DNA of 32,000 bases from Acidothermus cellulolyticus 11B (GCF_000015025.1 NC_008578.1:450001-482000); one strand, 5' to 3'. Positions 16,109-32,000 are shown, numbered from the stretch's first letter. Translations and numbers: made by a program. Notes: generated from the letters alone by a model not told the origin.

Positions 16109-16124
16109 CACCGGCAGACCGACC

Positions 16125-17078: not shown

Positions 17079-17102
17079 CCGGGCGGAAAGGACTCCCATC
17101 GT

Positions 17103-17981
17103 GTGCAGTGTTGCGAGGTGGTCGAGGTGAGCGTAGCGACGGCACCTGCCCCCGCCGGACATCGTCGTCGCCCTCGGCTCACGGTCGGACGGGTGATACT
17201 CGTCCTCCTCATGACCGCGGTCACCGTCGTCATGCTCTATCCGTTCGGCTTCATGGTGAACAACTCGTTCAAAACGCAGCAACAATTCGATGGCGCGGTC
17301 AGCGGCCACTCGCTCTCCTCGTGGATGCGCCTTCCGAAAGTCATTCCGGTCTGGCGGGAAATCATCAATTCCACCATCGTCTGTGCGGCCGCGATCGCCA
17401 TCATTCTTGCGGTCAGCACCATCGCCGGTTTCGCCTTCGCGAAGCTGCGCTACCGGGCGTCGGTGCTTGTCTTCATCGCCATCATCGCGGCCATGCTCAT
17501 TCCGGTTCAATCCATCATCATCCCGGCGTACGTCAATTTCTCCAAGGCACACCTGCTCACCGGGTACTGGGGTGCCGTGCTCGTGTACGCCGCGCTTGGC
17601 ACGCCGTTCGCCACGTTCCTCATGACCACCTTTTACCGTGGTCTGCCGGATGACCTGGTCGACGCGGCCATCGTCGATGGCTTGGGGTATTGGGGTGCGT
17701 TCGTGCGGGTCGCGCTGCCGATGGCGCTCCCGGCAATCGTTACGGTGACCGTCCTGCAGTTCATCCAAATCTGGGACGACCTGCTCGTCGGACTGCTGTT
17801 CTTACAAAACCCGAGTGACCGCACGATTACCGTCGGGCTCGGCGTTCTTGCCTCTGGTCGCACCACAGACATTCCGGTGCTGATGGCTGGTTCTCTCATG
17901 AGTGCCCTCCCTGCGATCCTTGTCTACGTCGTTTTCCAACGGCAACTCGTGAGCGGACTTACCGCCGGGATGGGCAAATAG
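17103..17981 (+). CDS. ABC sugar transporter permease (MalG type)
   Basis: The EAA loop is LVDAAIVDGLGYWGAFVRVALPMALP and the protein is polytopic and hydrophobic. Alternative GTG starts lie at 17118 and 17127. Confidence 0.85.
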   Translation: MQCCEVVEVSVATAPAPAGHRRRPRLTVGRVILVLLMTAVTVVMLYPFGFMVNNSFKTQQQFDGAVSGHSLSSWMRLPKVIPVWREIINSTIVCAAAIAIILAVSTIAGFAFAKLRYRASVLVFIAIIAAMLIPVQSIIIPAYVNFSKAHLLTGYWGAVLVYAALGTPFATFLMTTFYRGLPDDLVDAAIVDGLGYWGAFVRVALPMALPAIVTVTVLQFIQIWDDLLVGLLFLQNPSDRTITVGLGVLASGRTTDIPVLMAGSLMSALPAILVYVVFQRQLVSGLTAGMGK

Positions 17982-18006
17982 CGTCTACGATCCGACAGGA
18001 GTTGCG

Positions 18007-19380
18007 ATGAACCGCGTGGTCAGTCGATCCCCACAGCGGCCCGACGATGTGGTCGTCGACGTGGCGGTGACCGATCCGGCGGCCGTGCGCAACGCGGCCG
18101 ACACCGCCCGGCAGGCTGCGCGGGACTGGTCGGCCGCCACGGCGCTGGCTCGAGCCCGGGCGCTGCACCAGCTTGCCGATGCGATCGCCGCCGAGCGGGA
18201 GACGCTATCCGCACTCATCGTCCGCGAAGTCGGCAAACCGGTGAGCGAAGCCGGCGCCGAAGTGGACCGCGGGATTGCGCTCGTCCGCTACTACGCACAA
18301 CAAACCCTCGATCCGATAGGCGAAACATATCCAGCCCCGGATGGGACGTCACTGCTGTACACGTTTCGCCGACCGCACGGCGTCGTCGGCCTCATCACGC
18401 CGTGGAATTTCCCCATCGCCATTCCACTCTGGAAAATGGCCCCCGCCCTCGCGTACGGCAACACCGTGGTGTGGAAGCCTGCGCCGGAGGCGACCGGCGT
18501 GGCGCTCCGCCTCCACGAACTCTGCGCCGCTGCACTGCCGAGCGGGGTCGTGACTATCGTCCTCGGTGACGCCGAGACCGGCCGGGCCGTGGTGGACACC
18601 ACGGACGCGGTGTCTTTCACCGGATCCGCACGTGTCGGCGCGCTGGTGCGGATCGCGGCCGCGGAGCGTGGCATCCCCAGTCAATGCGAAATGGGTAGCG
18701 TCAACGCCTCGATCGTCTTCCCGGACTATCCCGTCGAGGACGCAGCGCGGGTCATCGCCTCGGCTGCCATGGGGTACGCGGGACAGAAGTGCACGGCTAC
18801 CAGCCGGGTCATCGTGGTCGGCGATCCCGAGCCTCTCGTCGATGCATTGGTCGCGGCGGTGGAGGCATTCCCGGTGGGCGACCCGGCCGATCCGACGACC
18901 GGCATGGGCCCGGTGATCAGCGCGGACTCCCTTGAGGCCGTTCTTACCGCGGCGGACGAAGCAAGAGCCTCGGGCGGGGCTCTGCTCACCGGCGGCCGGC
19001 GATGCCGCGACGACGGGTGGTACGCGGCTCCCACCCTGGTGCGCGGCCTAGCGCCCGGGCATCGCCTGGCGCAAGAGGAAATCTTCGGCCCGTTCTGCGT
19101 TCTCCTCACCGCACGCGACATCGACGAGGCTTTCGAGCTGGCCAACGCCGTCCGCTACGGACTCGTGGCAGCGGTCTTCACCCACGACACTCGGGTCGTC
19201 GCGGAGGCGGTCCGCCGGTTGGACACCGGGCTGATCCGGATCAACGCGGCGACGACCGGCGTCGATTTCTACGCTCCCTTCGGAGGTCAGAAGCTCTCTA
19301 GCAGCGGCCCGCGGGAACAAGGCAAAGCGGCCCGCGACTTCTTCACCACCGTGCATACGGTGACCATCACACCGGCGTAG
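18007..19380 (+). CDS. NAD(P)-dependent aldehyde dehydrogenase (2,5-dioxovalerate/alpha-ketoglutarate-semialdehyde dehydrogenase-like)
   Basis: AGGAG lies upstream of the ATG. ALDH motifs are ITPWNFP, FTGSARVG, the catalytic Glu in EMGSVNA, the catalytic Cys in GQKCTATSR, and EEIFGP. Confidence 0.85.
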   Translation: MNRVVSRSPQRPDDVVVDVAVTDPAAVRNAADTARQAARDWSAATALARARALHQLADAIAAERETLSALIVREVGKPVSEAGAEVDRGIALVRYYAQQTLDPIGETYPAPDGTSLLYTFRRPHGVVGLITPWNFPIAIPLWKMAPALAYGNTVVWKPAPEATGVALRLHELCAAALPSGVVTIVLGDAETGRAVVDTTDAVSFTGSARVGALVRIAAAERGIPSQCEMGSVNASIVFPDYPVEDAARVIASAAMGYAGQKCTATSRVIVVGDPEPLVDALVAAVEAFPVGDPADPTTGMGPVISADSLEAVLTAADEARASGGALLTGGRRCRDDGWYAAPTLVRGLAPGHRLAQEEIFGPFCVLLTARDIDEAFELANAVRYGLVAAVFTHDTRVVAEAVRRLDTGLIRINAATTGVDFYAPFGGQKLSSSGPREQGKAARDFFTTVHTVTITPA

Positions 19381-19584: not shown

Positions 19585-20481
19585 GTGGAGCAGCACAACC
19601 TCGACGTCTCGATCGTCCTGCCCTGTTACAACGAGGAAGACCACGTCGCGCTGGAGATCGAGCGGATCATCGCGGCGATGGACGCCAGCGGATACCGCTA
19701 CGAACTCATCGCCATCGACGACAAATCCACCGACAACACTCTCGCCCGGCTTCGGGAGGCTGAGCGGAAATACCCGCAGGTGCGGGTCGTCGCGTTTCGC
19801 CGCAACGGCGGCTCCGGCACGGCCCGGCGGATCGGTACAGGTGAAGCGCGGGGCCGGATCGTCGTCTGGACGGACGCCGACCTCACCTACCCGAACGAAC
19901 AAATCCCCGACCTCGTCGCCTACCTCGACGAGCATCCGGACGTCGACCAAGTCGTCGGGGCGCGCACCAGCGAACAAGGCCGGCACAAACTGCTGCGGGT
20001 GCCGGCGAAATGGTTCATCCGCAAACTTGCCGAATGGCTCGCCGGCACGAAAATCCCCGACCTGAATTCCGGCCTGCGGGCGTTCCGCCGCCAGGTCGCG
20101 CTGCCCTACCTGCGCCTCCTGCCGCCCGGATTCTCCTGCGTCACCACCTTGACCTTGGCGTTTCTCTCCAACCAGCACGCCATCGACTACATCCCGATTT
20201 CCTACGCCCGGCGCTCGGGGAAATCCAAATTCCATCCCCTGCGCGACGCCTACCGTTACCTGCTGCAGGTGCTTCGCATGGTGATGTACTTCAATCCGCT
20301 GAAAGTGCTGATGCCGCCGGCGCTCTGGCTCATGGGAATCGGCGTCGCGAAGGGAATCGCCGACGTCGTCCGCTACCGCTTCCACCTCTCCACCAACACC
20401 GTGCTGCTCTTCGTCACCGGCTTGATCATCGCAGCGGTGGCGCTCCTCGCCGACCTTTTCGTCCGATCCCGGGCCGACTAG
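19585..20481 (+). CDS. GT2 polyprenyl-phosphate glycosyltransferase (GtrB/DPM1-like) with two C-terminal TM helices
   Basis: The GTG start is preceded by GGGAAGGGAG. Motifs are VSIVLPCYNEE, AIDDKSTDNT and WTDADLTY (DxD). The C-terminal hydrophobic helices are LMPPALWLMGIGV and LLFVTGLIIAAVALLADLF. Confidence 0.8.
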   Translation: MEQHNLDVSIVLPCYNEEDHVALEIERIIAAMDASGYRYELIAIDDKSTDNTLARLREAERKYPQVRVVAFRRNGGSGTARRIGTGEARGRIVVWTDADLTYPNEQIPDLVAYLDEHPDVDQVVGARTSEQGRHKLLRVPAKWFIRKLAEWLAGTKIPDLNSGLRAFRRQVALPYLRLLPPGFSCVTTLTLAFLSNQHAIDYIPISYARRSGKSKFHPLRDAYRYLLQVLRMVMYFNPLKVLMPPALWLMGIGVAKGIADVVRYRFHLSTNTVLLFVTGLIIAAVALLADLFVRSRAD

Positions 20482-20488
20482 CCGGCGC

Positions 20489-21472
20489 ATGCGCCACCCC
20501 CTCACCCCCCGGACCCGCACCCTCCTGCGGGTGGTCCTGCTCGGCGTCATCGTCGCCGCCTTCGCGGTCGCCGTCCGCGACCGCTGGGGCGCCGTCCGCG
20601 ACAGCCTCACCGACCTGCCGGTCTGGAGCCTCGCTGCGGCGACCGCCCTCGGGTTCGCCAACATCGGCGCTGCGATGTTCTCGTGGCGCACCCTGCTTGC
20701 CGATCTCGGGTCCCCGCTCCGACTCCGGGACGCCGCCCGCATCTTCTACCTCGGCCAGCTCGGCAAATATCTCCCCGGCTCGGTCTGGACCGTCGTCGCC
20801 CAGGTGGAACTCGGCCGCGACCACGGGGTCCCGCCCCGCCGATCCGTCGCGGCCAGCGCCGTCTCACTCGGCATCTCGCTCGCCGCCGGGCTGCTGCTCG
20901 CGGCCGTCACCCTGCCCTACTCCGCCCGGGCGGCGCTCGAACACTACTGGTGGGCGCTGCTCGCCCTCCCCGTGATCGCCGTCGCGCTGCTGCCCCGCAA
21001 CGTCTACCGGCTCACCCACCTCATCCTCCGGCTGCTCCGCCGCGAACCCCCGGACCACGAGTTCTCCTGGCGCGGCGTGCTCCGCTCCTTCGGCTGGCAG
21101 CTCACCGGATGGCTGGGACTCGGCACCCAGGCCCTCGTCCTCGCCGTCGCCCTGCACGCGGACGCCGGACACGCCGCGCCGGTCGCCCTCGGCGGCGCGG
21201 CGCTTGCCTGGTGCGCCGGCTTCCTCGCCGTACCGGTGCCGGCCGGTGCCGGGGTGCGGGAAGCGGTCTACCTCGCGGTCCTCGCCCCGGTGCTCCCCGC
21301 CGGCCCTGCGCTCGCCATCGCCCTGGTCTCCCGGGCCATCGCGACGCTCGGCGACGGCATCTTCGCGGCCGGGGCGCTCCTCGCCGCCCGCAGCGGACGC
21401 GCCGCCGTTCAGCCGGGTGCGGCTTTTCACAGCCCGCTCGCAGGGAAGTCCCAGCGAACGGGCGGAGAATAG
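20489..21472 (+). CDS. Flippase-like polytopic membrane protein (LPG_synthase_TM / UPF0104-like)
   Basis: It has about eight hydrophobic segments and an FYLGQLGKYLPGSVW motif resembling the UPF0104 family. It starts 7 nt after the GT2 stop. Confidence 0.6.
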   Translation: MRHPLTPRTRTLLRVVLLGVIVAAFAVAVRDRWGAVRDSLTDLPVWSLAAATALGFANIGAAMFSWRTLLADLGSPLRLRDAARIFYLGQLGKYLPGSVWTVVAQVELGRDHGVPPRRSVAASAVSLGISLAAGLLLAAVTLPYSARAALEHYWWALLALPVIAVALLPRNVYRLTHLILRLLRREPPDHEFSWRGVLRSFGWQLTGWLGLGTQALVLAVALHADAGHAAPVALGGAALAWCAGFLAVPVPAGAGVREAVYLAVLAPVLPAGPALAIALVSRAIATLGDGIFAAGALLAARSGRAAVQPGAAFHSPLAGKSQRTGGE

Positions 21473-21565
21473 CCGGTAGTGGGTTGGTGAACCCGGAGCG
21501 CCGGGAAGGCTGTCGGCATGAGCGTCGAAGCCGGCGGGCGCGGCCGAGGACGAGTGAGGTGATCC

Positions 21566-22252
21566 GTGGGTGTGACAGGCGACTTCTGGGAATCGTGGCA
21601 ACCGCCGTCCTGGCTGCAACCGGTCTGGGGAGCGCTCAGACCCGACCAGTTGCGGCGGATGTTCCGGTACACCGCCGGATCGGCGATCTGCTTCGCCGTC
21701 TCAGAAGTCACCTTCGTCGTGCTGTTCTACCCCCACCTGCTCGGTGCGAAGTCCTCCTCGGTCGCCGCGTCGGTCGCCGGCATCATCCCCGGGTACTGGC
21801 TGAACCGCACGTGGACCTGGGGACGCCGGCACCGGTCGGATTTCTGGCGTGAGGTCGTGCCGTACTGGGCGACGTCCGTGGCGAGCGCCGTCTTTGCCGC
21901 CCTCGCGATCGGGGCGGTCAATGACGCGACGATGGCCTACAGCCGGGGTCTGCGCACGGTGATGAACGCGGCGACCTACATGGCGGTGTACGGGCTGATA
22001 TTCATCGGCAAATACCTGCTCTTCGACCGGCTGCTCTTCCCGTCGGCAACACCGGCGGCCGTCGGTGAGCCGGTGACCGTGACCGCCGAACCGCGGCCGG
22101 GCGCAGGAGGGCTGACTGCCGAACCGCGGCCGGGTGCAGCGAACCCGCACCGGGCGAGCCCCCACCCGCCGGTTCCGCGTCCGCGACCCTCACGGACCCT
22201 CAGCTGGACGCCGTCCGAGAAAACCGCTCCCGGACATACGTGCGAAGGATGA
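21566..22252 (+). CDS. GtrA-family membrane protein (putative lipid-linked sugar translocase) with a Pro-rich C-terminal extension
   Basis: GAGGTGA lies upstream of GTG 21566. The GtrA-like pattern is FRYTAGSAICFAVSEVTFVVLF, four TM helices, then GKYLLFDRLLF. The tail has a 33-nt direct repeat (22083-22106 / 22116-22139, encoding TAEPRPGA twice). The last 53 nt overlap the convergent GT2 gene. Confidence 0.65.
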   Translation: MGVTGDFWESWQPPSWLQPVWGALRPDQLRRMFRYTAGSAICFAVSEVTFVVLFYPHLLGAKSSSVAASVAGIIPGYWLNRTWTWGRRHRSDFWREVVPYWATSVASAVFAALAIGAVNDATMAYSRGLRTVMNAATYMAVYGLIFIGKYLLFDRLLFPSATPAAVGEPVTVTAEPRPGAGGLTAEPRPGAANPHRASPHPPVPRPRPSRTLSWTPSEKTAPGHTCEG

Positions 22253-23051
22253 CCCGCGCGTAGCGCAATCCGTACAGCAGGTTGTGCCCCTTCTTGCTCC
22301 GCCCGGCCCGGCGCACCCGCATCACCGTCGGCACTTCCGCGACCCGGTACCCCTGCAGAATCGCGCCGATGAGCAGCTCAGAGGTCTGGTACTGCGGCTG
22401 TGTCTGCCGCACCGTCGCGGTGATCTCCGCCCGCATGGCCCGCAGGCCGCTGGAACTGTCCGTAACCCGGGTGCCGGTCAGAAAACTGATCAGCCGGGAG
22501 AAGAATCGGACGCCGAGGTTGCGCACCGCGTCGGTGTTCTCGGTCCGGCCGAGCTGACGGGAACCGATCACGAAATCTGCTTTGTCTGCTTCGAGAAGCT
22601 CGATCATCGCAGGCAGATCCGCCGGATCCCACTGCCCGTCGGCGTCCAGGGTCGCGATGTACCGGGCACCGCCCTCCCGGGCGATCCGATACCCGGTGCG
22701 GAGCGCCACCCCGTGCCCGCAATTGCGGGACAACCGGCAGACCAGCGCACCGCCGGCTTCCGCGACCTCGGCAGTCCGGTCCGTACTGCCGTCATCGACC
22801 ACCAGGACGCGCGCATCGAGGCTGCCGATGCGCGGAGGGATTTCCGCCAGAACGCTCGGCAACGCCGCTTCTTCATCAAGTGCCGCGATGACGATGACCA
22901 GCGGCGGCAGGTGTTCCGCCGGGTAACGGGCGCGGAAATCCGCCAGAGCCGCTTCGACGACCTCGCTCGTGCCGGCGGCCTCCCGCAACGCCCGGTGAAT
23001 TCTGCGTTGACGCACCGACTTTCCCTTCGCGTTTCGGCTCATGAGGGGCAT
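22200..23051 (-). CDS. GT2 glycosyltransferase (DPM1/Ppm1-like soluble catalytic domain)
   Basis: The preferred start is ATG 23051 (MPLMSRNAKG), which overlaps the stop of the upstream membrane-protein gene (TAATG). Motifs are VIVIAALDEE, VVDDGSTDRT, TLDADGQ (DxD) and GLRAMR. The 53-aa extension to 23210 lies inside the upstream gene. Confidence 0.8.
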   Translation of the reverse strand: MPLMSRNAKGKSVRQRRIHRALREAAGTSEVVEAALADFRARYPAEHLPPLVIVIAALDEEAALPSVLAEIPPRIGSLDARVLVVDDGSTDRTAEVAEAGGALVCRLSRNCGHGVALRTGYRIAREGGARYIATLDADGQWDPADLPAMIELLEADKADFVIGSRQLGRTENTDAVRNLGVRFFSRLISFLTGTRVTDSSSGLRAMRAEITATVRQTQPQYQTSELLIGAILQGYRVAEVPTVMRVRRAGRSKKGHNLLYGLRYARVILRTYVRERFSRTASS

Positions 23052-24598
23052 TATTCTCCCATCGCCGGCAGCGGGGTCCGTGCCGTGTTCGGCGTTTCCC
23101 GGTTCTCCGGGCCGGCGCTGACCGGCAGCGAGAGCCACCACCACAGGAACACCGCTTGCAGCGCAACGAAAAGTCCGACAGCGAGCAGCGGAGCGATCGG
23201 CGGATTCCACGGCGTGTCACGGACGAAGAGCGGTGCGTTTACGCCGGTGCGGTACCGGTGCAAGGCCTGGACAAAGCCGCTGACCTGCACGGCACCGACC
23301 GTCACACCGATGATGAGCGCGGGCACGAGCAGTCGCCGCGCACGAGCCCGGCGGTCTCGCGGCCGGCGGGACATGGCGTAGCCCGCGAGAATCGGCGCCC
23401 CGACCGCGACCGGAAGAATGTACCGGCCCTGCCCCACAATGCCGAGTTTGCGGGCTTCGAGCGATGCCAATGCGGTGGGAAGCAGAATCGTCACCGCCAC
23501 CACCCCGGCAATGACGACGGCGAGCCGAAATTCCCGCCGCACGAGCACCGCCAACGCCAGCAGGGCGCAGATTGCCTCCCACGCGAAATAGCACCAGGTC
23601 GGCATATTCGTGTCCAACCAGCCGAAAACCCCGAAAAGCTGGTACATATTCAAACCGACCGCACGGATCGCCGTTGTGAAAATCTGCCAGTTGCTGGCAT
23701 TCGGTGCGACCGGCTGCCCGGCACCGGCGAGCTTGAGACTCCCCATGGCGAAAATCCACACCAAGGCGAAAATAGAGCTCGCCGCGAGGATTCCGGCGCC
23801 GATCTGCCCGTCCCGGCGGCGCAAGACCCGGAGCACCGGTTGCCACCCGGTGACGCCGACGACGGTGAGACCGATGACGGCGAGCAGCAGCGGTGAAAGT
23901 CCGCGGACCTGCACGAGCACGGACGCCGACACCGCCGTCCAGAGCACGAGACCGCGCGGCGGCGGGTCCTCGCGCGAGGCGAACGCCGCCAGCGCGCAGG
24001 TCCAGGTCGCCAAGGCTGCACTGATCTCCAGGCCGCTCGGATTCACCACACTGGCAAGGAAAAGCGCCATCGGCGTGACGGCCGCTGCGACACCGAGCAC
24101 CGTCCAGCGCGCTCGCCGGATCCGCGACGCGGCGACAAACCCGACGGCGAGGAAGAGCGACGACAGCGCGGCACTGACCAGCCGCATCCAGAACAGTACG
24201 TCCTTGCCGTTGGTGACGAGTGTCGGCAGCCCGACGAGAAGGTAGTACAAGGGGGGATAGCCGCCGACGTACGTGAGCGCCTCGGTCAGTCCCGATTGTG
24301 CCGTCCAGCGGGGCAGACATGCCGCGGATTGCTCCGGCTGAAAGGCGATGCACGCCGGGTTGCCTTGCGCCAGCGTCGCCGGTACCGTGAATGCCTCATA
24401 CGGTATGTGATCAGCCGGTTGCGGGGTGCCGCGGAATTCGCCGCGCACATTCGCGGCTGCCTTGACGGCATGCGCCGGCTCGTCGGGTGCCGCGTATTTC
24501 GGGGTCGTGACCGCCCAGAGCGCGGTGATACCGAAGAGGATGACGAAGCCGAGCAGTGCCCGCACCCATGTCCGCTTCATCGCCGAGAGTGTACCCAC
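23051..24598 (-). CDS. Large polytopic membrane protein, DUF2142-like (putative GT-C-fold glycosyltransferase)
   Basis: After the first TM helix comes a periplasmic-loop motif, YAAPDEPAHAVKAA, as I recall for DUF2142. There are more than ten hydrophobic segments. It is translationally coupled to the downstream GT2. Confidence 0.6.
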   Translation of the reverse strand: MGTLSAMKRTWVRALLGFVILFGITALWAVTTPKYAAPDEPAHAVKAAANVRGEFRGTPQPADHIPYEAFTVPATLAQGNPACIAFQPEQSAACLPRWTAQSGLTEALTYVGGYPPLYYLLVGLPTLVTNGKDVLFWMRLVSAALSSLFLAVGFVAASRIRRARWTVLGVAAAVTPMALFLASVVNPSGLEISAALATWTCALAAFASREDPPPRGLVLWTAVSASVLVQVRGLSPLLLAVIGLTVVGVTGWQPVLRVLRRRDGQIGAGILAASSIFALVWIFAMGSLKLAGAGQPVAPNASNWQIFTTAIRAVGLNMYQLFGVFGWLDTNMPTWCYFAWEAICALLALAVLVRREFRLAVVIAGVVAVTILLPTALASLEARKLGIVGQGRYILPVAVGAPILAGYAMSRRPRDRRARARRLLVPALIIGVTVGAVQVSGFVQALHRYRTGVNAPLFVRDTPWNPPIAPLLAVGLFVALQAVFLWWWLSLPVSAGPENRETPNTARTPLPAMGE

Positions 24599-24669
24599 CC
24601 GGGCAATTTGAGATCAGTCTCTCACCGGGAGCTCCCAGCAAGCTTTGAGGATCACTGCCTAGGATTCCG

Positions 24670-26523
24670 ATGATGAGCTCTCAGCTTGCCGTAGCGTCGC
24701 GCCTGCGGCTTGCCCGGTTGCGCCGTCCTAGACCGGACGGCGGATGGCTGCCTGCCTCTCCGCGGGTGCGTCGCGCCGCCGTCCCCGCCCTTCTTGTCAT
24801 CGTCGCGACTGCGTTGAGTTACGGCTATACCGCGTCCGCATGGCTCACGGATCCGACGACCACCTGGGTCGGCAACGTCGGAGACCCTGAGCAGAATCAG
24901 TGGTTTCTCGGTTGGCTGCCGTACGCCATCGGGCACGGTCTCAACCCGCTCATCAGTCAGCACGTGCTGTTTCCTGACGGCGTCAACCTGATGTGGAATA
25001 CCTCGGTGCTGCTGCCGGCGCTGCTGCTCTCGCCCGTCACCGTGCTCTTCGGGCCCACGGTCGCCTACAACGTCGCCCTTCTGCTCTGCCCGCCGACGGC
25101 CGCGCTAGCGGCGTACTTTGCCATCCGGCGCTGGACCTCGCAGTTTGCGGCGGCCGGCGGCGCGTTGCTCTTTGCCTTCAGCCCGTTCTTCTTCCGCCAA
25201 GCACAGGATCACCTGCACATGGCGGTTACCGCGTTCGTGCCGCTCTTTTTTCTCACGATGGACGAGGTGTTCCGCCGGCAGCGGCGCCGGTGGTGGGTGG
25301 CCGGAGGTCTGCTCGGCCTGGTCGCGCTCGGGCAGTTCTTCACCGCCGAAGAGTTCCTCGCCACCGACGTGCTGCTCGGCGCCGGTGTGGTCGCCGTCCT
25401 TGCCGCCTGCTATTGGCGGGTCGTCGCCGCGAAAATCTGGTACGCCGCGCGCGCTCTCGCGGTTGCGGCGGGTGTTTTCGCCGTCGTCGCCGCGTATCCG
25501 CTCTGGGTGCAATTTGGCGGACCGCAGCGGGTTCCCGGCACGATCCACGCGCCGAACGTGTACGTCAACGATCTCGCGAACCTCATCGTGCCGGTCGGAC
25601 AGTGGCTCGCGCTCGGATCCGCGCACGGCATGAACCAGAGCTGGACCGGCAATCCGGGGGAGTGGAACGGGTATCTCGGTATCCCGCTGCTGCTCGTCAT
25701 CCTGCTGGCGCTGGTCGTCGGCTGGCGCCGCCCGATTGTCCGGGTTGCCGGGGGTTTGTTCGTCGTGGTGGAAATCCTTTCTTTTGGGCCGAATCTGCAC
25801 ATCGGCGGCCACGTCACCACTATCTGGCTGCCCTGGCAGTGGGTGCAGCGGCTGCCGCTGTTCCATAACGCGCTGCCGAACCGGCTCGGGGTGTACGTCT
25901 ACCTGTTTGCCGGGCTGCTCACCGCCGTCCTGATCGACCACGTGATCGCTTGGGTCACGACGGCCGTCCGGGCTGGGAAATCGGCTGGTGTGCCGGCGCG
26001 GCGTCCCTGGGAGAAGCTGCGGGCGGTAGCGGTCGGAGCGGCGGCCGGACTGTTGATCGTCGTTGTGTTGAGCTGGCTGCCGGCCGCTCCTGCGGTGACC
26101 ACCGTCACGGAACCGGCGTACTTCACCTCGACCGGGGAAGCAGCAGACCTGCCGGCGGGGACCGTGGCCGTCGTCCTGCCCTACGTGTCGGGACCGAACC
26201 TCGAGGACGCCGAGGTCTGGCAGGCACGATCCGGCTTCCGCATGAAAATGCCCGGCGGATGGCTGATCGTCCCCGGACCGCATCACGGTGTGGAAGGGCC
26301 GACGTACCAGGTCTTCGGCGAGGTATTTCCGGACACCACGACGCTGGACGACGGTCTCGCTGCCGCGGTGCGGGCGGAGTGGCGGCAGTGGGGGGTCACC
26401 AAGGTCATTGTCGGTCCCGGGCCCTATGACCAGAACGTCATCGCCGGGCAGGTTTCGTACATTCTCGGCGGGGTGCAGCCCCGGTGGACCGGCGGCGTCG
26501 CGGTCTTCGACGTCCCGCAGTGA
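24670..26523 (+). CDS. Large polytopic membrane protein with a C-terminal extracytoplasmic domain (GT-C-like; family not recognised)
   Basis: The first loop has acidic residues, GDPEQNQWFLGWLPYAIGHGLNPL. There are about 11-12 TM segments. A soluble tail of about 150 aa follows the last TM (TVTEPAYFTS...VAVFDVPQ). Confidence 0.6.
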   Translation: MMSSQLAVASRLRLARLRRPRPDGGWLPASPRVRRAAVPALLVIVATALSYGYTASAWLTDPTTTWVGNVGDPEQNQWFLGWLPYAIGHGLNPLISQHVLFPDGVNLMWNTSVLLPALLLSPVTVLFGPTVAYNVALLLCPPTAALAAYFAIRRWTSQFAAAGGALLFAFSPFFFRQAQDHLHMAVTAFVPLFFLTMDEVFRRQRRRWWVAGGLLGLVALGQFFTAEEFLATDVLLGAGVVAVLAACYWRVVAAKIWYAARALAVAAGVFAVVAAYPLWVQFGGPQRVPGTIHAPNVYVNDLANLIVPVGQWLALGSAHGMNQSWTGNPGEWNGYLGIPLLLVILLALVVGWRRPIVRVAGGLFVVVEILSFGPNLHIGGHVTTIWLPWQWVQRLPLFHNALPNRLGVYVYLFAGLLTAVLIDHVIAWVTTAVRAGKSAGVPARRPWEKLRAVAVGAAAGLLIVVVLSWLPAAPAVTTVTEPAYFTSTGEAADLPAGTVAVVLPYVSGPNLEDAEVWQARSGFRMKMPGGWLIVPGPHHGVEGPTYQVFGEVFPDTTTLDDGLAAAVRAEWRQWGVTKVIVGPGPYDQNVIAGQVSYILGGVQPRWTGGVAVFDVPQ

Positions 26524-26545
26524 GCAATATTGGACTGCCGTGGTC

Positions 26546-26711
26546 ACCGGGAATATCGACCTCCCGGGTTGGGCAATCGCGACGTCCCGTAGTGAGCCGG
26601 AATCTTGACCTCCGGCAGCCAGCGGGAATCTCCCAGGAATCTCCCGGCAATCTCCCAGCGTCACCCGGTGCACCGGTGGGTATGCTGCGGGCATCACGAG
26701 GGAATTTCCGG
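26546..26711. promoter_or_regulatory. Array of seven related GG(G/C)AAT...TCCC motifs, a CACC(C)GGTG duplication and a candidate -10 (TATGCT, 26681-26686) in the leader of the sulfoquinovose synthase gene
   Basis: Motif starts are at 26549, 26572, 26598, 26624, 26635, 26646 and 26700. Three contiguous 11-nt units, (G/C)AATCTCCC(A/G)G, lie at 26626-26658. Hairpin-capable CCGGGA-N9-TCCCGG and CCGGA-N9-TCCGG lie at 26547-26567 and 26597-26615. The palindrome CACCGGTG is at 26671-26678. Confidence 0.55.
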
Positions 26712-26739
26712 TTCGGCTAAATGATCAGCGGAGTGTGCG

Positions 26740-27915
26740 ATGCGTGTCCTGATTCTCGGCGGTGACGGTTTCTGCGGTTGGCCGACCTCCCTGCACCTGT
26801 CGGCACAAGGGCATGACGTGCACATTGTCGACAACTTCGCCCGGCGGTGCGCGGACATCGAATTGGAAGCCGAATCGCTCACCCCGATCGCGCCGATGGG
26901 AACCCGGTTGCGCGCCTGGCGTGAGGTGAGCGGCAAGGAGATCGAATTCTCCCGGTTCGACGTCGCGGTGCACTATCACCGGCTGCTCACCCTGCTGCAG
27001 GAGTGGCAGCCGGACGCGGTTGTGCACTTCGCCGAACAGCGGGCCGCGCCGTACTCGATGAAATCGTCGTGGCACAAGCGGTACACGGTGAACAACAACA
27101 TCAACGCGACGAACAACCTGCTCGCCGCCATCGTCGAATCCGGGCTGGACATTCACGTCGTCCACCTCGGAACGATGGGCGTGTACGGCTACGGCACCGC
27201 CGGGATCAAAATTCCCGAAGGATACCTGCGGGTGCAGATTCCCAAGGAGAACGGCGAAGTCGTTGAATCGGAAATCCTCTACCCGCCGAACCCGGGGTCG
27301 ATTTATCACATGACGAAGACGCAGGACCAGCTGCTCTTCGCCTACTACAACAAGAACGACGGGGTGCGGGTCACCGACCTGCACCAGGGCATCGTCTGGG
27401 GCACCCAGACTGTCGAGACCCGGCTCGACGACCGGCTCATCAACCGATTCGATTACGACGGCGATTACGGAACTGTGCTGAACCGGTTCCTCGTCGAAGC
27501 CGCGATCGGATATCCGCTGACCGTGCACGGATCGGGCGGCCAGACCCGCGCGTTCATCAACATTCAAGACACCGTGCGGTGCATTCAGCTTGCGGTCGAG
27601 AATCCGCCCAACCCCGGGGAGCGGGTGCGGGTCTTCAACCAGATGACCGAGTGTCACCGGATCATCGACTTGGCCAAGCTGGTCTCCGAGCTCACCGGCG
27701 TGGAGATCGATCACGTGGAGAATCCGCGGAACGAAGCGGACTCCAACGACCTGTTCGCCGAGAACCGGCAGCTCCTCGAACTCGGGTTGAAGCCGATCAC
27801 CCTGGAGGCCGGGCTGCTCACCGAAATCACCGAGATCGCGCGGAAGTACGCCGACCGGATCGACGTCGACAAGATCCCGTGCCGGTCGTACTGGCGTCCG
27901 AAGCGGAGTGTGTGA
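26740..27915 (+). CDS. sqdB: UDP-sulfoquinovose synthase (SQD1/SqdB/Agl3 family, extended SDR)
   Basis: GGAG lies 7 nt upstream of the ATG. Near-collinear motif matches to plant SQD1 as I recall it are GGDGFCGW, ESLTPI, HFAEQRAAPYSM, LGTMGVYG (catalytic Thr), YHMTK at 27304-27318 (Tyr-His-x-x-Lys including the SQD1-specific His), RFDYDGDYGTVLNRF and GGQTRAFINIQDTV. Confidence 0.9.
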   Translation: MRVLILGGDGFCGWPTSLHLSAQGHDVHIVDNFARRCADIELEAESLTPIAPMGTRLRAWREVSGKEIEFSRFDVAVHYHRLLTLLQEWQPDAVVHFAEQRAAPYSMKSSWHKRYTVNNNINATNNLLAAIVESGLDIHVVHLGTMGVYGYGTAGIKIPEGYLRVQIPKENGEVVESEILYPPNPGSIYHMTKTQDQLLFAYYNKNDGVRVTDLHQGIVWGTQTVETRLDDRLINRFDYDGDYGTVLNRFLVEAAIGYPLTVHGSGGQTRAFINIQDTVRCIQLAVENPPNPGERVRVFNQMTECHRIIDLAKLVSELTGVEIDHVENPRNEADSNDLFAENRQLLELGLKPITLEAGLLTEITEIARKYADRIDVDKIPCRSYWRPKRSV

Positions 27916-28041
27916 CCGCCGGTCGTGCGGGCGGCCGAAGCGGAGTGTGTAGCGGATCGTTCTTCCGGCCGCCGGTTCCGCCGAGACGGTTGGCCGCAGA
28001 CCGGGGAGCCGTCCGGCCGCCGGTGATTGTGATCAAGGTGG

Positions 28042-28968
28042 GTGGGTGTTCGCGTTAGCATAGGCGTCGAAACGCTGATGGCTGACGTAGGACGCGAGCG
28101 CGAGACGCGCCGGCAGGACGAGCGCGACCGTGACGCCGTCGGGCGGCGGTACCTCGCGCACTTCACCGAATCAGACCGGCGCTTTCTGGCTGCGGCACGC
28201 CCCGGTGTCGCGGAGCTGCTCGGCCGCCGACCGGGCGTCGTCCTCGACCTGCTCGGCAGCGAAGAGGTCGCGGCGGCGCTCTTCCCGCGGCCGCCGCAAC
28301 CGTCCGACGCGCTCGCGATGGTCTCCCCGGCGCTGGCGTTCGCGGTCGCCGTCCACCGGGCCGCCGAGGAGCAATCCGGTTCGCTGTACGTCCCCGAATG
28401 GGTGGGACCCCGGCAACGGGTGCCCGTCTTCGCCGGCCCGGAGCTCGCCGCTTTTCTCGCCGAGCCGTGGCACCGGCTCTTTCTCGTCGAACTGCTCGCC
28501 TCGTATGCCCGGGTGGCCAGCGGGAGCTACCTGACCCGCACCGCGCACGGGTGGCGGCGGCGGCGGTACAGCGAACTTGACCCGGTGCAGCTTGCCGGGC
28601 TGCTGCACGCGGTGTCGCCCGTTGAGCAGGCGGGTGTCTACCGGCGGCTGGGTGATCTCGCGTTGTTCTTGACCGGCGTGTTCCCGGACCACACCGCGAC
28701 CCGGGCGTTCCGTCCGCTCGACGCGCAGCGGTTGCTGCGCCTGGTCGGGGAATCGCACGAGCACGCCGATCGCGGCGCAGTGGATTTGCTGCAGTGGCTG
28801 GGACCGCGGTGGTACCGGCAGGCTGTGGCGCACGTCCCGTTCGTCACCGCGGACGCCCGGATTCTGCAGACGATGGCCGACCAATTCGTCAACGCCCGGC
28901 GGATTCTCACCGTCGTCGCCGACCGGTACCTTTTCCCGGTCGGCAATCCGTGGTTTCCGTGGAATTAG
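28042..28968 (+). CDS. Hypothetical cytoplasmic protein with no recognised domain
   Basis: The ORF has host-like codon bias (C/G at third positions). The N-terminus is charged (RERETRRQDERDRD). The start is uncertain (GTG 28042 or ATG 28078). The stop TAG at 28966-28968 overlaps the stop of the convergent GT4 gene. Confidence 0.55.
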   Translation: MGVRVSIGVETLMADVGRERETRRQDERDRDAVGRRYLAHFTESDRRFLAAARPGVAELLGRRPGVVLDLLGSEEVAAALFPRPPQPSDALAMVSPALAFAVAVHRAAEEQSGSLYVPEWVGPRQRVPVFAGPELAAFLAEPWHRLFLVELLASYARVASGSYLTRTAHGWRRRRYSELDPVQLAGLLHAVSPVEQAGVYRRLGDLALFLTGVFPDHTATRAFRPLDAQRLLRLVGESHEHADRGAVDLLQWLGPRWYRQAVAHVPFVTADARILQTMADQFVNARRILTVVADRYLFPVGNPWFPWN

Positions 28969-30194
28969 CGGCCCTCCCGGCGCACCTCGCTGAACAGCCG
29001 CACGTACGCCTCGGCCACCTGCCGGGGTGTCGCCGCCTTTTCGATGAACGTCCGGCCGGCGGCGCCCATCACGGCCGCCCGCTGCGGATCCTCGACGAGA
29101 GCGCGGATCGCGGCGACGAAAGCTTTCTCGTCGTCCGGTGGTACGGCGATTCCCGCACCGGAGTCGTGAACGATCCGCGCCACTTCGCTGCCCTCATCGA
29201 CACTGGCCACCACCGGCCGGGCGGCGGCAAGAATCGAATACGTCTTCGACGGAACGCTGGAGCGGGCCAGTCCCTTCTTCAACGGGACGACGTGAATGTC
29301 CGCGGCGGCCAACACCTCGGGCAGCCGTTCGACCGGCTGCAACGGCACGAACCGAATGTTCGGCAGACCGTCCGCCAGGCGCTGCCAGTCGGGGAGAGTC
29401 GAACCGGTTCCGTTGACGACGAAGACGACGTCGTCGCGGTCGCGAAAATCACGGGCGGCGGCGATGAGCAAATCCAGCGATTGCGACATGCCGACGTTCC
29501 CGGCGTACATGACGACGGTCTTCCCCGCAAGCCCGTACTCGCGGCGGTACGAATTCTCCCGCTCCCCGGGCGTGATTCCCGCGACGTCCACGAAATTCGG
29601 GATGACGTGCACCCGCCTCGGATCCCGTACCTTGGCGGCGATGTTGGCGCGCATGTCCTCCGACAGCACGGTGACGGCGGCGCATCGGGCGTACGACCAG
29701 CGTTCCAGCGCGGCGGCGGCGCGGATGAGCGCCGGATTGCGCAGCAATCCCAGTTCGACCGCCACATCCGGAAAAACATCCTGCACATTAAGGACGAGCG
29801 GACACCGCCGGGCAAGGGACGCCAGCCATCCGGTCGCCGCCATCGGCAACGGCGGTGTCATCGCGAAAGCGACATCCAGGCGGCCGCCGATGCTCGCTGC
29901 GACGGCGGAAAGGCCGCAGAACGCGGCAAAACCAAGCGCACGCTTCGGGATGTTCCGTTTGTCGGCCGTCGGGAACGGATACACCCGGGTGACCGAACCC
30001 CACGGCCGCCACTGCCGGTGCACGACACGGCCGCGCCACTCCGGCTCGACCGCGTGCCGCTCGTACCAGGGCAGTGACGTCACGACGTGGATGTCGTGAC
30101 CAAGTCCGCCGATTTCCTCGATGAGCCGGGCGGCGATGATGCCGGTGGGTGCGACGTCCGGCACGAAATGCGGTACGACGGCGAGGATTCTCAT
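28965..30194 (-). CDS. GT4 glycosyltransferase, WcaI/WbuB-like
   Basis: The preferred start is ATG 30194 (MRILAVVPHF), preceded by GGAG and overlapping the upstream stop (ATGA). The C-terminal-domain motif PLKKGLARSSVPSKTYSILAAARPVV is typical of the WcaI/WbuB subgroup. Confidence 0.8.
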   Translation of the reverse strand: MRILAVVPHFVPDVAPTGIIAARLIEEIGGLGHDIHVVTSLPWYERHAVEPEWRGRVVHRQWRPWGSVTRVYPFPTADKRNIPKRALGFAAFCGLSAVAASIGGRLDVAFAMTPPLPMAATGWLASLARRCPLVLNVQDVFPDVAVELGLLRNPALIRAAAALERWSYARCAAVTVLSEDMRANIAAKVRDPRRVHVIPNFVDVAGITPGERENSYRREYGLAGKTVVMYAGNVGMSQSLDLLIAAARDFRDRDDVVFVVNGTGSTLPDWQRLADGLPNIRFVPLQPVERLPEVLAAADIHVVPLKKGLARSSVPSKTYSILAAARPVVASVDEGSEVARIVHDSGAGIAVPPDDEKAFVAAIRALVEDPQRAAVMGAAGRTFIEKAATPRQVAEAYVRLFSEVRREGR

Positions 30195-31336
30195 CTCCGC
30201 TCGGCCACCTCCCGGTACACCGCCACCTGCCGGTCGACGCTGCGCGGCGCGGCGAACTCGGCCGCCCGGCGTCGGCCCGCGTCGGCGCAGCGGCACCGTT
30301 CGGCGTCGTCGTCTAGCAGTCGCTCCAGAGCGTCCGCCCAGCCGAGGATATCGTCCGGATCGACGAGCAGCCCGGCGTCACCGACCAGCTCCGGCAACGC
30401 CGCGGCCCGGGCGGCGGCCACCGGGACGCCGTGCGCCATCGCCTCCAGGACTGGCAAGCCGAAACCCTCGAAACGGGACGGAAAAGCAAGCACAGCCGCC
30501 CGCCGGTACAGTTCGACAAGGTGCGGCCGGGGCAGGTGGCCGAAGAATTTCACCTGGTCGTTGAGGCGATGCCGAGCCGCCAGCGCACGGATTTCCGATT
30601 CCGTCGACCGCGCCGACCCCCACGCCCCAGCCCCGGCGGCGCCGGTGAAAACGAGCTGCACCGCGCGGCGGTGAGCGAACCGCGCGAAAGCCTCGATGAG
30701 CACGCGGTGATTCTTGTGCGGGTAGAACGCGGCCGGATAGAGGATGAACGTCCCGACGTTGCGGAGCAACGCATCGACGGCCTCCCGGTCGGCGTCCGTC
30801 GGTTCTGGTGGGGGAAGGAGCAGCGGCGGAATGACGACGACCCGGCCCGCGGCCGGAAATGCGGCCCTGACGTGCCGGCCGGTGAACTCGCTCACCGTGC
30901 AGACTACCCGGGCCCGGCGCACCGCCCGGCCTTGCGCGGCCCGCAAATACGCGCGTTTGAGAATTGAGAAATTCCGCGGATACACCAGGTATTGCAAATC
31001 GTGAATGGTCACGACCGCCGGGACGGGCGCGGTCGGCACCAGCCCGCCGAGATGGTGGACGACGTCGAAATCCCCCGACCGGAGGCGGAGAGCGAGCCAG
31101 CTGTGCTCGACCGCGACCCGGCGGACGACGTGTCGGCCGGCGGGCAGCGGCGCGGTGATGCAATGGCGGGCGAATTCCGGGTAGCGGCCGGTGAATTCTG
31201 GCGTGGCAAAAAGCGTGAGCGCCAGGTCGTCGCGGCCGCGGAGGGCGTTGAGCAGGTCGACCGCATACCGTTCGGTGCCGCCGACCACGCCGGGCACGCA
31301 CCAGAGCAAGTTCACCGCGACGCGCAACCGGGTCAT
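30191..31336 (-). CDS. GT4 glycosyltransferase (mannosyltransferase-like)
   Basis: The signature FPSRFEGFGLPVLEAMAHGVPV is present. The N-domain is RVAVNLLWCVPGVVGGTERY. The start overlaps the upstream gene stop (ATGA at 31333-31336). Confidence 0.85.
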   Translation of the reverse strand: MTRLRVAVNLLWCVPGVVGGTERYAVDLLNALRGRDDLALTLFATPEFTGRYPEFARHCITAPLPAGRHVVRRVAVEHSWLALRLRSGDFDVVHHLGGLVPTAPVPAVVTIHDLQYLVYPRNFSILKRAYLRAAQGRAVRRARVVCTVSEFTGRHVRAAFPAAGRVVVIPPLLLPPPEPTDADREAVDALLRNVGTFILYPAAFYPHKNHRVLIEAFARFAHRRAVQLVFTGAAGAGAWGSARSTESEIRALAARHRLNDQVKFFGHLPRPHLVELYRRAAVLAFPSRFEGFGLPVLEAMAHGVPVAAARAAALPELVGDAGLLVDPDDILGWADALERLLDDDAERCRCADAGRRRAAEFAAPRSVDRQVAVYREVAERR

Positions 31337-32000
31337 CGGCCGGCCGCTTCCCGGTAGACCTGCACGGTGCGCTCCGCGGCCGTCGTCCAGGAGTACTGGG
31401 CGGCACGGCGCCGCGCTGCGTCCGACAGCTCGTCGTGCCGGTCACCCGCGGCGCTGACCAGCGCGTCCGCCAGCGCATCGACGTCCGTCGGGTCCACGAG
31501 CAGCCCCGCGCCGTCCGCGAATTCCGCCATCGCCGACCCTGCCGACGTCACCACCGGGACGCCGTGCGCCATCGCCTCCAGCACCGGCAGACCAAACCCC
31601 TCCCGCAGGGACGGATAACAGAACACCCGGGCGCCGGCGTACGCGGCATGCAGATCCGCCGCCGGCAGGAATCCCACCATCCGCACCCCGGGTGCCGGGT
31701 CGAGGTGCACCGCGCCCCACCCGGCCGGGCCGGCCAGGACGAGTTCCAGCTCGGGTATGCGCCGGCGGGCCCGCGCGAACGCCTCCAGCAGCCGTGGCAG
31801 GTTCTTGCGCGGCTCCACCGTCCCGCACCAGAGCACGTACGGGCGGGAAAGCCCATACCGGGCAAGGAAATCGCGCACCTTCGCCTCGGGAATTTCCGGG
31901 ACGGACACCCCGTGCGGCACCAGCCGCAGCTGATCCTCGGCGAAACCGGCGTCCACGCACTCGGCCCACGTCGCCCGGGACGGAACCATGACCAGGTCCG
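31333..32000 (-). CDS. GT4 glycosyltransferase, C-terminal part only (the gene continues beyond the window end); paralogous to 30191-31336
   Basis: The signature YPSLREGFGLPVLEAMAHGVPVVTS is present. The frame stays open to nt 32000, and only the C-terminal Rossmann domain is inside the window. Confidence 0.8.
   Translation of the reverse strand, partial: DLVMVPSRATWAECVDAGFAEDQLRLVPHGVSVPEIPEAKVRDFLARYGLSRPYVLWCGTVEPRKNLPRLLEAFARARRRIPELELVLAGPAGWGAVHLDPAPGVRMVGFLPAADLHAAYAGARVFCYPSLREGFGLPVLEAMAHGVPVVTSAGSAMAEFADGAGLLVDPTDVDALADALVSAAGDRHDELSDAARRRAAQYSWTTAAERTVQVYREAAGR

Follow-up and report, generated by a model that had tools for sequence, protein, structure and literature searches.

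We analysed a 32,000-nt stretch of DNA from Acidothermus cellulolyticus 11B (NC_008578.1, 450001–482000), hereafter the window, with a focus on sqdB (26740..27915, + strand), the gene of a predicted UDP-sulfoquinovose synthase. On balance, we lean towards reading the segment from 19.6 to 27.9 kb as a sulfoquinovose (SQ) version of three-component extracytoplasmic glycosylation: UDP-SQ would be converted to polyprenyl-phosphate-SQ, this lipid would be flipped, and a GT-C-fold enzyme would transfer SQ to an envelope acceptor. The evidence consists of the family assignments of the encoded proteins, the modelled folds of two membrane proteins and the recurrent linkage of sqdB to a single glycosyltransferase (GT) gene, GT2c. 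The gene map of the window was built from open reading frames (ORFs) supported by their GC content at third codon positions (GC3) and from matches to Pfam and NCBIfam.

Identity of the sqdB product

The sqdB ORF starts with ATG and encodes 391 aa. Its GC content is 0.85 at third and 0.39 at second codon positions, which is a normal coding signature for DNA of ~67% GC, the composition of the window. An earlier note on this DNA, made from the sequence alone, had assigned the product to the SQD1/SqdB/Agl3 family along its whole length, and the database comparisons agree. NCBIfam model NF041015 (UDP-sulfoquinovose synthase) matched residues 1–376 on model positions 1–372 of 384 (E 2.6e-105, 352 bits), and the crystal structures of Arabidopsis SQD1 (1qrr and 1i24) matched residues 2–386 (E 1.4e-97). 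The identity to SQD1 in a multiple alignment was 45%. The next-best families of the short-chain dehydrogenase/reductase (SDR) superfamily were GalE, RmlB and UXS (E 1e-13 to 1e-7); on the PDB side, UXS reached ~1e-13 and GalE 1e-7, as compared with 1.4e-97 for SQD1. The placement relative to ordinary epimerases, which the earlier note had proposed as a check, was equally one-sided, with 48 bits for the GalE model versus 352 bits for NF041015.

The translation contains all six motifs that the note had quoted: GGDGFCGW (residues 7–14), ESLTPI, FAEQRAAPYSM, LGTMGVYG, YHMTK and GGQTRAFINIQDTV. The NAD-binding GxxGxxG signature is present as GGDGFCG (residues 7–13), and the catalytic triad is formed by T145 in LGTMG and by Y189 and K193 in YHMTK. 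The key residues of SQD1 are Thr145, Tyr182 and Lys186; in Agl3, the homolog from Sulfolobus acidocaldarius, the essential residues are His95, Arg101, Met145, Tyr182 and Lys186, with Glu147 and Tyr148 also important (PMC4388408). In an alignment of the window SqdB with SQD1 and 107 homologs, the window protein keeps H95, R101, T145, M146, Y149, S180, Y182, H183, K186 and Q209. The histidine beside the catalytic tyrosine in YHMTK, to which the note had drawn attention, corresponds to SQD1 His183, the residue that sets the SQD1 family apart from GalE and RmlB. It is invariant in the window SqdB, SQD1 and the 107 homologs, as are the Agl3-essential His95, Arg101 and Met145.

A homolog search with SqdB yielded at least 8000 matches. 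The best 120 were all 80–95% identical, and the organism-named ones among them were actinobacterial metagenome-assembled genomes (MAGs) labelled Acidothermus sp. (95%), Frankiaceae, Marmoricola, Mycobacteriales and Acidimicrobiales. The Acidothermus sp. MAG is the best named relative, with 95% identity for SqdB and 63% for Mem617, the product of the gene directly 5' of sqdB. The 80 homologs from genome records were 70–84% identical and included that of the cyanobacterium Tildeniella (74%) and those of many Alpha- and Gammaproteobacteria. The same LGTMGVYG clade presumably includes the characterized SqdB enzymes from Rhodobacter and Synechococcus PCC 7942. The same SqdB protein and gene order recur on several independent metagenome contigs, so the arrangement in the window is not an assembly artefact.

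Judged from these sequence comparisons, the window SqdB very probably makes UDP-SQ. The gene is common in Actinomycetota: Joint Genome Institute annotation already names many of the actinobacterial homologs UDP-sulfoquinovose synthase, and SACE_5690 of Saccharopolyspora erythraea was already included in the 2015 tree of the Agl3 paper (PMC4388408). The new element is thus the genetic wiring of sqdB, not its presence in this phylum.

Linkage of sqdB to GT2c and membrane proteins

GT2c (22200..23051, −; PF00535) is a soluble GT2 enzyme of 283 aa, a length also given by an independent gene call. It resembles PpgS, ArnC and DPMS, and is the predicted polyprenyl-phosphate sulfoquinovose synthase of the locus. 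Its best NCBIfam matches were mycobacterial PpgS (4e-26), a haloarchaeal dolichyl-phosphate hexose transferase (2e-25), AglJ and ArnC, all under the equivalog cutoffs; its best PDB matches were ArnC (8vxh, 2.5e-11) and DPMS (5mlz, 2e-10). By sequence, it is a predicted member of the polyprenyl-phosphate sugar synthase group. The ATG of GT2c has a Shine-Dalgarno sequence in front of it and overlaps the TAA of the preceding DUF2142 gene (GGGAGaaTAATG): GT2c is translationally coupled to DUF2142.

The conservation of this neighbourhood, whose examination in related genomes the earlier note had suggested, was studied in two directions. In the forward direction, 80 genome loci around sqdB homologs were searched with every window protein. 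In the reverse direction, 18 aligned GT2c orthologs were used to scan metagenomes, which returned 80 loci. Orthologs of GT2c were counted by loose clustering plus tblastn, since ORF starts vary in high-GC DNA, and the labels L001 onward denote the 160 genome and metagenome loci compared.

Of all the window proteins, GT2c alone recurred near sqdB in the 80 genome loci. Its orthologs (48–66% identity) lay no more than 10 kb from sqdB in 19 of the 36 actinobacterial loci outside the Solirubrobacterales, in none of the 23 Solirubrobacterales loci and in 1 of the 21 non-actinobacterial loci. The Solirubrobacterales loci, together with several MAGs labelled just Actinomycetota, have the classic order of sqdB followed by a GT4 gene. 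The reverse search led back to sqdB: a SqdB-family gene was present in 28 of the 80 metagenome loci found via GT2c and, where the contig extended at least 4 kb to each side of GT2c, in 12 of 19, mostly at a distance of 1.2–1.9 kb. In these metagenome loci a GtrA gene often lies between GT2c and SqdB, and in several a GT-C-like protein with 7–10 transmembrane helices is encoded beside them.

The GT2c-linked SqdB proteins fall into two clades, which are 67–80% and 45–51% identical to the window SqdB. Both keep all the catalytic residues; the window-type clade scores 344–352 bits on NF041015, and the 45–51% clade, which is of the SQD1 type, scores 456–476 bits. Inherited synteny alone would hardly tie one GT2 family to two such divergent SqdB clades, which speaks for functional coupling.

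The second GT2 gene of the window behaves differently from GT2c in these comparisons. GT2b (19585..20481, +; PF00535, E 3.5e-28) is the first gene of an operon, GT2b–LPG_synthase_TM–GtrA (19585–22252, +), and resembles AglJ (1e-26), ArnC (6e-23) and PgfS (1e-21) in NCBIfam. No conserved GT2b ortholog was found beside sqdB in the genome loci, where only cross-matches of 27–33% identity occurred. The third gene of the operon encodes a small membrane protein of the GtrA family (21566..22252, +; PF04138, E 8e-8), a predicted lipid-sugar flippase. The two polyprenyl-phosphate-type GT2 enzymes and the GtrA protein that the earlier note had recognized are accordingly GT2b, GT2c and the product of this gene.

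A second candidate flippase is encoded between GT2b and GtrA. This LPG_synthase_TM protein (20489..21472, +; PF03706, E 4e-24) resembles the flippase domain of MprF (7.5e-9 versus the MprF flippase region). It is homologous to the proteins of cluster c25 that are encoded between GT2c and sqdB in L001, L002, L004, L005 and L070 (blastp 8e-17, hidden Markov model 3e-14). We observed that a stand-alone LPG_synthase_TM gene takes the slot of GtrA between GT2c and sqdB in L001 (8843–9904), L002 (8908–9933) and L070 (12064–13008). Its occupation of the GtrA position in several actinobacterial lineages suggests that this family may flip polyprenyl-phosphate sugars.

The remaining partners are two large membrane proteins, which the earlier note had called GT-C-like; structure prediction and fold comparison concur. 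Mem617 (24670..26523, +; 617 aa) gave only a weak PTPS_related match in Pfam, and some of its homologs match PF19830, which makes it DUF6311-like. Its AlphaFold2 model, computed from a 42-sequence alignment, had a predicted local distance difference test score (pLDDT) of 90.9 and a predicted template modelling score (pTM) of 0.90. In a Foldseek search of the PDB, the top 24 matches were all GT-C enzymes (AglB, AftD, STT3, ArnT, PglB, AftA and DPY19) with a probability of 1.00. The best of these was the oligosaccharyltransferase AglB, with a TM-score of 0.47. No WWD occurs anywhere in the Mem617 translation, and hence no WWDxG catalytic motif of the STT3/AglB/PglB type; on the model, the likeness to AglB appears to be one of general fold only.

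DUF2142 (23051..24598, −; PF09913, E 3e-96) is encoded divergently from Mem617 and sqdB. Its model was of similar quality (pLDDT 93.0, pTM 0.93), and its top 25 Foldseek matches were likewise all GT-C enzymes (EmbB, EmbC, AftA, AftB, STT3, PglB, DPY19 and Pmt4). For both proteins, every significant match (E ≤ 0.001) was to a GT-C enzyme, and the top matches are all enzymes that depend on a lipid carrier. Enzymes with this fold carry a catalytic acid in the first extracytoplasmic loop. The alignment of the Mem617 family has an invariant Asp72, which the model places in the brief stretch that joins its first two long helices; in DUF2142, the invariant pair D39-E40 lies near the N-terminus, between the first model helices. 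Read off the secondary-structure maps of the models, D72 and D39-E40 would both be in an extracytoplasmic loop. Pairs of GT2 and DUF2142 genes also occur in streptococcal rhamnan loci, with no defined function (PMC9746298).

The gene orders found elsewhere join the same kinds of protein. Single operons comprise, in order, a PMT-like GT-C protein, GT2c, GtrA and SqdB in L077; SqdB, GT2c, an LPG_synthase_TM-like protein and a PMT-like GT-C protein in L070; and GT2c, a flippase-like protein, SqdB and two GT-C proteins in L002. In L001, L004, L005 and L036, a PMT_2-like GT-C gene diverges from the series GT2c, flippase-like gene, sqdB, and in L035, sqdB is followed directly by two Mem617-like genes. 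Prauserella and Saccharomonospora have an epimerase, a GT-C and a GT2c gene, then GtrA and then sqdB. GtrA-family genes separate GT2c from sqdB in L054, L064, L068, L072 and L077 and in many metagenome loci. The closest analogue of the window is L081: a DUF2142 gene (41–42% identity) precedes GT2c (71%), and genes for GtrA (50–51%) and SqdB (70%) are on the other strand, with GtrA located between GT2c and SqdB. Many Actinomycetota thus share the combination of sqdB, GT2c, a GtrA or other flippase-like gene and a GT-C gene, and it emerges from searches started with either sqdB or GT2c.

Several further arrangements were seen in these loci. The SQD1-type SqdB clade occurs in a recurrent operon of a GalE-like epimerase, a GT2c-like protein, GtrA and SqdB, located at about 9–12.5 kb in each of the metagenome loci L115, L118, L126, L127, L133, L141 and L159; the epimerase might supply UDP-glucose or act on UDP-SQ. 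In the Solirubrobacterales-type loci L003, L008, L011, L013, L016, L018, L025, L038 and L042, at about 8–12.3 kb, sqdB and a GT4 gene are accompanied by genes for an HExxH-containing membrane protein (cluster c1) and a protein of 190 aa (cluster c12), a context that probably represents the classic route to sulfoquinovosyl diacylglycerol (SQDG) in Thermoleophilia. In some loci of Nocardioidaceae and Actinomycetes, a protein of ~250 aa that looks sulfotransferase-like by eye (c44) is encoded 3' of sqdB; its genes are at 12398–13144 and 15466–16215 in L043, 11140–11973 in L057 and 2018–2755 in L067.

Proposed route and rival explanations

Three-component systems of extracytoplasmic glycosylation include GtrA/GtrB/GtrC (O-antigen glucosylation), CsbB/GtcA/YfhO (lipoteichoic acid glycosylation), ArnC/ArnT (modification of lipid A with 4-amino-4-deoxy-L-arabinose), the mycobacterial PpgS/Rv3789/Rv3779 (galactosamine on arabinogalactan) and Ppm1/Pmt. 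Like them, the window clusters a predicted GT2 polyprenyl-phosphate-sugar synthase, a predicted GtrA-family flippase and a GT-C protein with a dedicated nucleotide-sugar gene. With sqdB, two GT-C proteins, two polyprenyl-phosphate-type GT2 enzymes, GtrA and an MprF-flippase-like protein, the parts list of such a system is complete. The window differs from the known systems in that the dedicated sugar gene is sqdB and the predicted cargo a sulfonated 6-deoxyhexose, in that LPG_synthase_TM replaces GtrA in several lineages, and in that the GT-C partners, DUF2142 and the DUF6311-like Mem617, belong to uncharacterized families.

The route would run as follows. In the cytoplasm, SqdB, by its homology, would turn UDP-glucose and sulfite into UDP-SQ. 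GT2c, as its family and its linkage to sqdB suggest, would move SQ from UDP-SQ onto polyprenyl monophosphate, and the GtrA protein, the LPG_synthase_TM protein or both would flip polyprenyl-phosphate-SQ to the outer leaflet. There, a GT-C enzyme would pass SQ to an extracytoplasmic acceptor, for which a wall polysaccharide, a lipoglycan and a secreted protein are candidates. The enzyme could be DUF2142, through its translational coupling to GT2c, Mem617, which is co-oriented with sqdB, or both; the fold is that of the models, and the donor and acceptor are those that the route would predict. GT2 and GT-C enzymes both invert configuration, so the lipid product would be polyprenyl-phosphate-β-SQ and the final SQ linkage would be α. 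The outcome would be a permanently anionic, phosphate-free sulfonate on the envelope. A lipid-phosphate-SQ intermediate had been raised tentatively in the earlier note; the class of GT2c, the two GT-C folds and the recurrent linkage speak in its favour.

Some observations weigh against this route. The window's own sqdB and GT2c belong to separate operons on opposite strands, with 3.7 kb between them. Each component is doubled (GT2b and GT2c, GtrA and LPG_synthase_TM, DUF2142 and Mem617), which makes the SQ-handling set ambiguous. In seven of the 19 long metagenome loci, the GT2c relative has no sqdB within reach, and these seven include three of the closest relatives, in L084, L086 and L087 (65–70% identity); the GT2 clade may thus not be strictly SQ-specific, or sqdB may be elsewhere in those genomes. 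The GT-C partner varies by lineage (PMT-like proteins of clusters c10 and c36, DUF2142 and Mem617-like proteins), so the acceptor may vary with it, or GT-C may be less tightly linked than GT2. SQ from an actinobacterial wall or glycoprotein is not reported in the literature that we searched. At the position of Agl3 Glu147 (TMGEY), the window SqdB has Val (LGTMGVYG). Finally, the route as proposed is entirely a product of sequence comparison and structure modelling.

Three competing explanations were considered. UDP-SQ might feed a cytoplasmic GT4, an SqdX/SQD2 analogue that is either one of the convergent GT4 genes or encoded elsewhere, and yield SQDG as a phosphate-sparing lipid, with the GT2, GtrA and GT-C proteins handling another sugar. 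As a rule, the related Solirubrobacterales loci have a cassette of sqdB and GT4, three GT4 genes lie 1–4 kb from sqdB in the window, the C-terminal half of one of them, GT4d, is 39–47% identical to the sqdB-adjacent GT4s, and some Gram-positive bacteria, all of them Firmicutes, are known to produce SQDG (bioRxiv 10.1101/2022.08.18.504050). However, the window GT4 genes are convergent with sqdB and not co-transcribed with it; GT4b is WcaI-like, and GT4a, GT4c and GT4d are no nearer to SqdX-like GT4s than to one another. Moreover, actinomycete-type loci that bear GT2c have no conserved GT4 by sqdB; what is conserved is GT2c, the flippase-like protein and GT-C. An ordinary sulfolipid would also leave the two-way linkage of sqdB and GT2c over two SqdB clades unexplained, and we regard it as an unlikely destination of the UDP-SQ. 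Incorporation in the cytoplasm appears similarly improbable. Soluble GTs would then place SQ from UDP-SQ into a polyprenyl-diphosphate-linked glycan that is subsequently exported, as has been proposed for Agl3-derived SQ on its way into the Sulfolobus N-glycan (PMC4388408), and the GT2, GtrA and GT-C proteins would add another side-chain sugar. The GT4 genes adjacent to sqdB, including that of the WcaI-like enzyme, would fit such a scheme, as would the presence of two GT2/flippase/GT-C sets, not all of which need carry SQ. Yet the sqdB part of the window encodes no Wzx/Wzy, no ABC exporter and no priming phosphotransferase, and the minimal operons of L077, L070, L127 and L133 consist of SqdB, GT2c and a flippase-like protein, sometimes with a GT-C protein or an epimerase, and lack a cytoplasmic GT4.

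The third explanation concerns the enzyme itself. The SqdB-like SDR might stop at UDP-4-keto-glucose-5,6-ene or add a nucleophile other than sulfite, in which case the lipid carrier would move that sugar. The NF041015 score of the window SqdB is below the curated equivalog cutoff of 575 bits, and the alanine mutant of Agl3 at Glu147, the position occupied by Val in the window protein, is strongly impaired (PMC4388408). The cutoff is narrow, however, given that the validated SQD1 itself scores only 485 bits and a cyanobacterial SqdB homolog 344. The valine is invariant in all 88 homologs that are at least 65% identical, cyanobacterial and proteobacterial ones included; it is therefore treated, from the alignment, as typical of this clade, with Glu not taken as a family-wide requirement, and as the one sequence-level reason for caution. 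The remaining catalytic residues tested are kept, including His183, Arg101, His95 and Met146, and the identity to the cyanobacterial homolog is 74%, in a phylum that, Gloeobacter excepted, makes SQDG via SqdB (PMC13436972). A product other than UDP-SQ is accordingly very improbable.

The window was also compared with the characterized SQ pathways. With SQD1 of Arabidopsis and SqdB of cyanobacteria, Rhodobacter and Sinorhizobium, the window enzyme shares full-length membership of the family, at 45% identity to SQD1 and 74% to the cyanobacterial protein, as well as the GxxGxxG signature, the Thr/Tyr/Lys triad and the His beside Tyr. Its setting differs from a two-gene sqdB-sqdX cassette, as the earlier note had remarked: the flanking genes encode Mem617 and a 296-aa protein, no co-oriented GT4 is adjacent and the nearest GT4 genes are convergent. 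Unlike the alphaproteobacterial sqdBDC/sqdA systems, the window encodes no SqdD (GT8), SqdC or SqdA; the window ORFs scanned contained neither a GT8 nor an acyltransferase domain. With a polyprenyl-phosphate-type GT2, a flippase-like protein and GT-C as partners, the predicted product is, in contrast to those of the sulfolipid pathways, not a diacylglycerol lipid. In this respect the window resembles the Agl3 system of S. acidocaldarius, which serves the N-glycan of S-layer protein and archaellin, in that the predicted destination of SQ is a non-lipid surface glycoconjugate; the residues essential in Agl3 (His95, Arg101, Met145, Tyr182 and Lys186; PMC4388408) are kept as well. It differs from that system in its bacterial host, in the Val at Agl3 Glu147, and in Mem617, whose best structural match, AglB, has a TM-score of 0.47 and which lacks WWDxG. 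The predicted donor would be a single sugar linked to a monophosphate and used outside the membrane, as opposed to a diphosphate-linked oligosaccharide built in the cytoplasm.

The literature search, which left subscription journals largely uncovered, found no paper that links SQ to polyprenyl or undecaprenyl carriers, to GtrA or other flippases, to GT-C enzymes or to actinobacterial wall polymers. The statement in the earlier note that its author knew of no such system in Actinomycetota is in keeping with this result, within the same coverage. The sole non-lipid SQ glycoconjugates in the literature searched are archaeal N-glycans, and a 2026 review treats SQ as a phototroph product that is made as SQDG and consumed by heterotrophs (PMC13436972). 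Comparative genomics supports and strengthens the three-component interpretation, which we favour from sequence and predicted structure. More tentatively, we suggest that many soil and sediment Actinomycetota might make polyprenyl-phosphate-sulfoquinovose, a novel lipid-linked donor, to sulfonate the envelope from outside. The lineages concerned would be Acidothermus-like bacteria, Frankiaceae, Mycobacteriales, Pseudonocardiales (Prauserella and Saccharomonospora), Nocardioidaceae (Marmoricola) and Gaiellaceae.

If this proposal is true, the product would be the first bacterial SQ glycoconjugate other than a glycerolipid, and glycobiology would gain a further class of SQ glycoconjugate together with a novel activated donor. 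DUF2142 and DUF6311-like proteins would acquire a function as GT-C transferases, and stand-alone LPG_synthase_TM proteins one as polyprenyl-phosphate-sugar flippases. Gram-positive bacteria would have a phosphate-free, fixed negative wall charge, analogous to teichoic acids and relevant under phosphate limitation. Soils would have a substantial non-phototrophic source of SQ, which would alter the inputs to their SQ and sulfonate cycle and could help to account for the frequent occurrence of SQ-degrading pathways among soil bacteria. The cassette is present in the culturable Prauserella rugosa NRRL B-2295, P. halophila DSM 44617, P. isguenensis CECT 8577 and Saccharomonospora sp. CUA-673, and in Saccharopolyspora erythraea, where the prediction is directly testable.

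Regulatory signals and neighbouring genes

Mem617, sqdB and the gene of the 296-aa protein form one unit (24670–28968, +), which diverges from the DUF2142–GT2c pair (22200–24598, −) over an intergenic region of 71 bp (24599..24669). This region is probably a shared regulatory region of both units. The leader of sqdB is 216 bp long. It contains three tandem 11-nt repeats (GGAATCTCCCNG; 26623..26658, +), with a spacing of 11 and 86–100% identity, ~80 nt 5' of the sqdB ATG; these may be an operator. It also contains, at 26580–26597, an 18-nt copy that is 94% identical to the last codons of Mem617 (26508–26525) and may be a duplication scar. The possibility that the leader contains a riboswitch or another known RNA was rejected, as Rfam gave no match anywhere in the window. 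No sigma-70-type promoter consensus was found around sqdB or in 24599..24669, which is a weak test for Actinomycetota, and terminator-like sites around sqdB occurred at chance level only.

The gene 3' of sqdB (28078..28968, +) encodes a protein of 296 aa, or 308 aa from the first possible start. It had no match in Pfam, NCBIfam or the PDB and was conserved beside sqdB in none of the 160 loci; it is found at the same position on contigs of the source lineage. Its membership in the sqdB module is uncertain.

Pfam and NCBIfam confirm the surroundings listed in the earlier note, namely two GT2 enzymes, GtrA, the two large membrane proteins and three GT4 genes; the GT4 genes and a protein with CWB2 repeats are not supported as parts of the system. 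The three GT4 genes (28965..31998, −) are present on the far side of sqdB, as the note had stated, but they converge on the sqdB operon, and their homologs are not conserved beside sqdB in loci of the GT2c type. GT4b extends over 28965–30296 from the first possible start, or over 28965–30194 (409 aa) in an independent gene call, and scored 235.6 bits on the WcaI subfamily model, which has a cutoff of 276. GT4c is at 30191–31336, and GT4d runs from 31333 to the end of the window, which cuts its 5' part. GT4a, GT4c and GT4d are 31–47% identical to the sqdB-adjacent GT4s of Solirubrobacterales and 32–41% identical among themselves, GT4d being compared in its truncated form. No curated SqdX model matched the window GT4 genes, again with GT4d incomplete.

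Upstream of GT2b, a Weimberg-type sugar-acid block (8807–19380) lies between the window's two glycan regions and shows no link to SQ. It encodes a zinc-dependent dehydrogenase (Zn-ADH), an IclR regulator, an M24-like protein, an enzyme of the L-arabinonate/dihydroxy-acid-dehydratase family (727 bits on PRK06131), a sugar ABC importer (a binding protein and two permeases) and an enzyme resembling alpha-ketoglutarate-semialdehyde dehydrogenase. The ILVD/EDD dehydratase, the aldehyde dehydrogenase, the importer and IclR had raised the suspicion of a sulfo-Entner-Doudoroff cluster for SQ catabolism. This was rejected on the NCBIfam assignments of the dehydratase and of the semialdehyde dehydrogenase, which point to a Weimberg-type pathway; no sulfoquinovosidase, aldolase or lactonase is encoded in the block. 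The M24-like gene (10782–11966) is overlapped at its 3' end by a 227-aa ORF (11804–12487, −) of moderate GC3 (0.78), which matched no family and may be spurious.

The first 8.7 kb of the window (1–8.7 kb) encode GH18, BrkB, GT2 and GT4 proteins and the protein with CWB2 repeats. The earlier note had counted this S-layer-like protein to the extended locus. It lies 18 kb from sqdB behind the unrelated catabolic operon, and none of the loci has it conserved in the vicinity of sqdB; its role as a glycosylation target or locus member is not supported. Its 869 aa (6066–8675, +) are not those of a classical S-layer protein; they form an unusual fusion in which three wall-binding CWB2 repeats are joined to a GT4 fold reduced to its N-terminal half.

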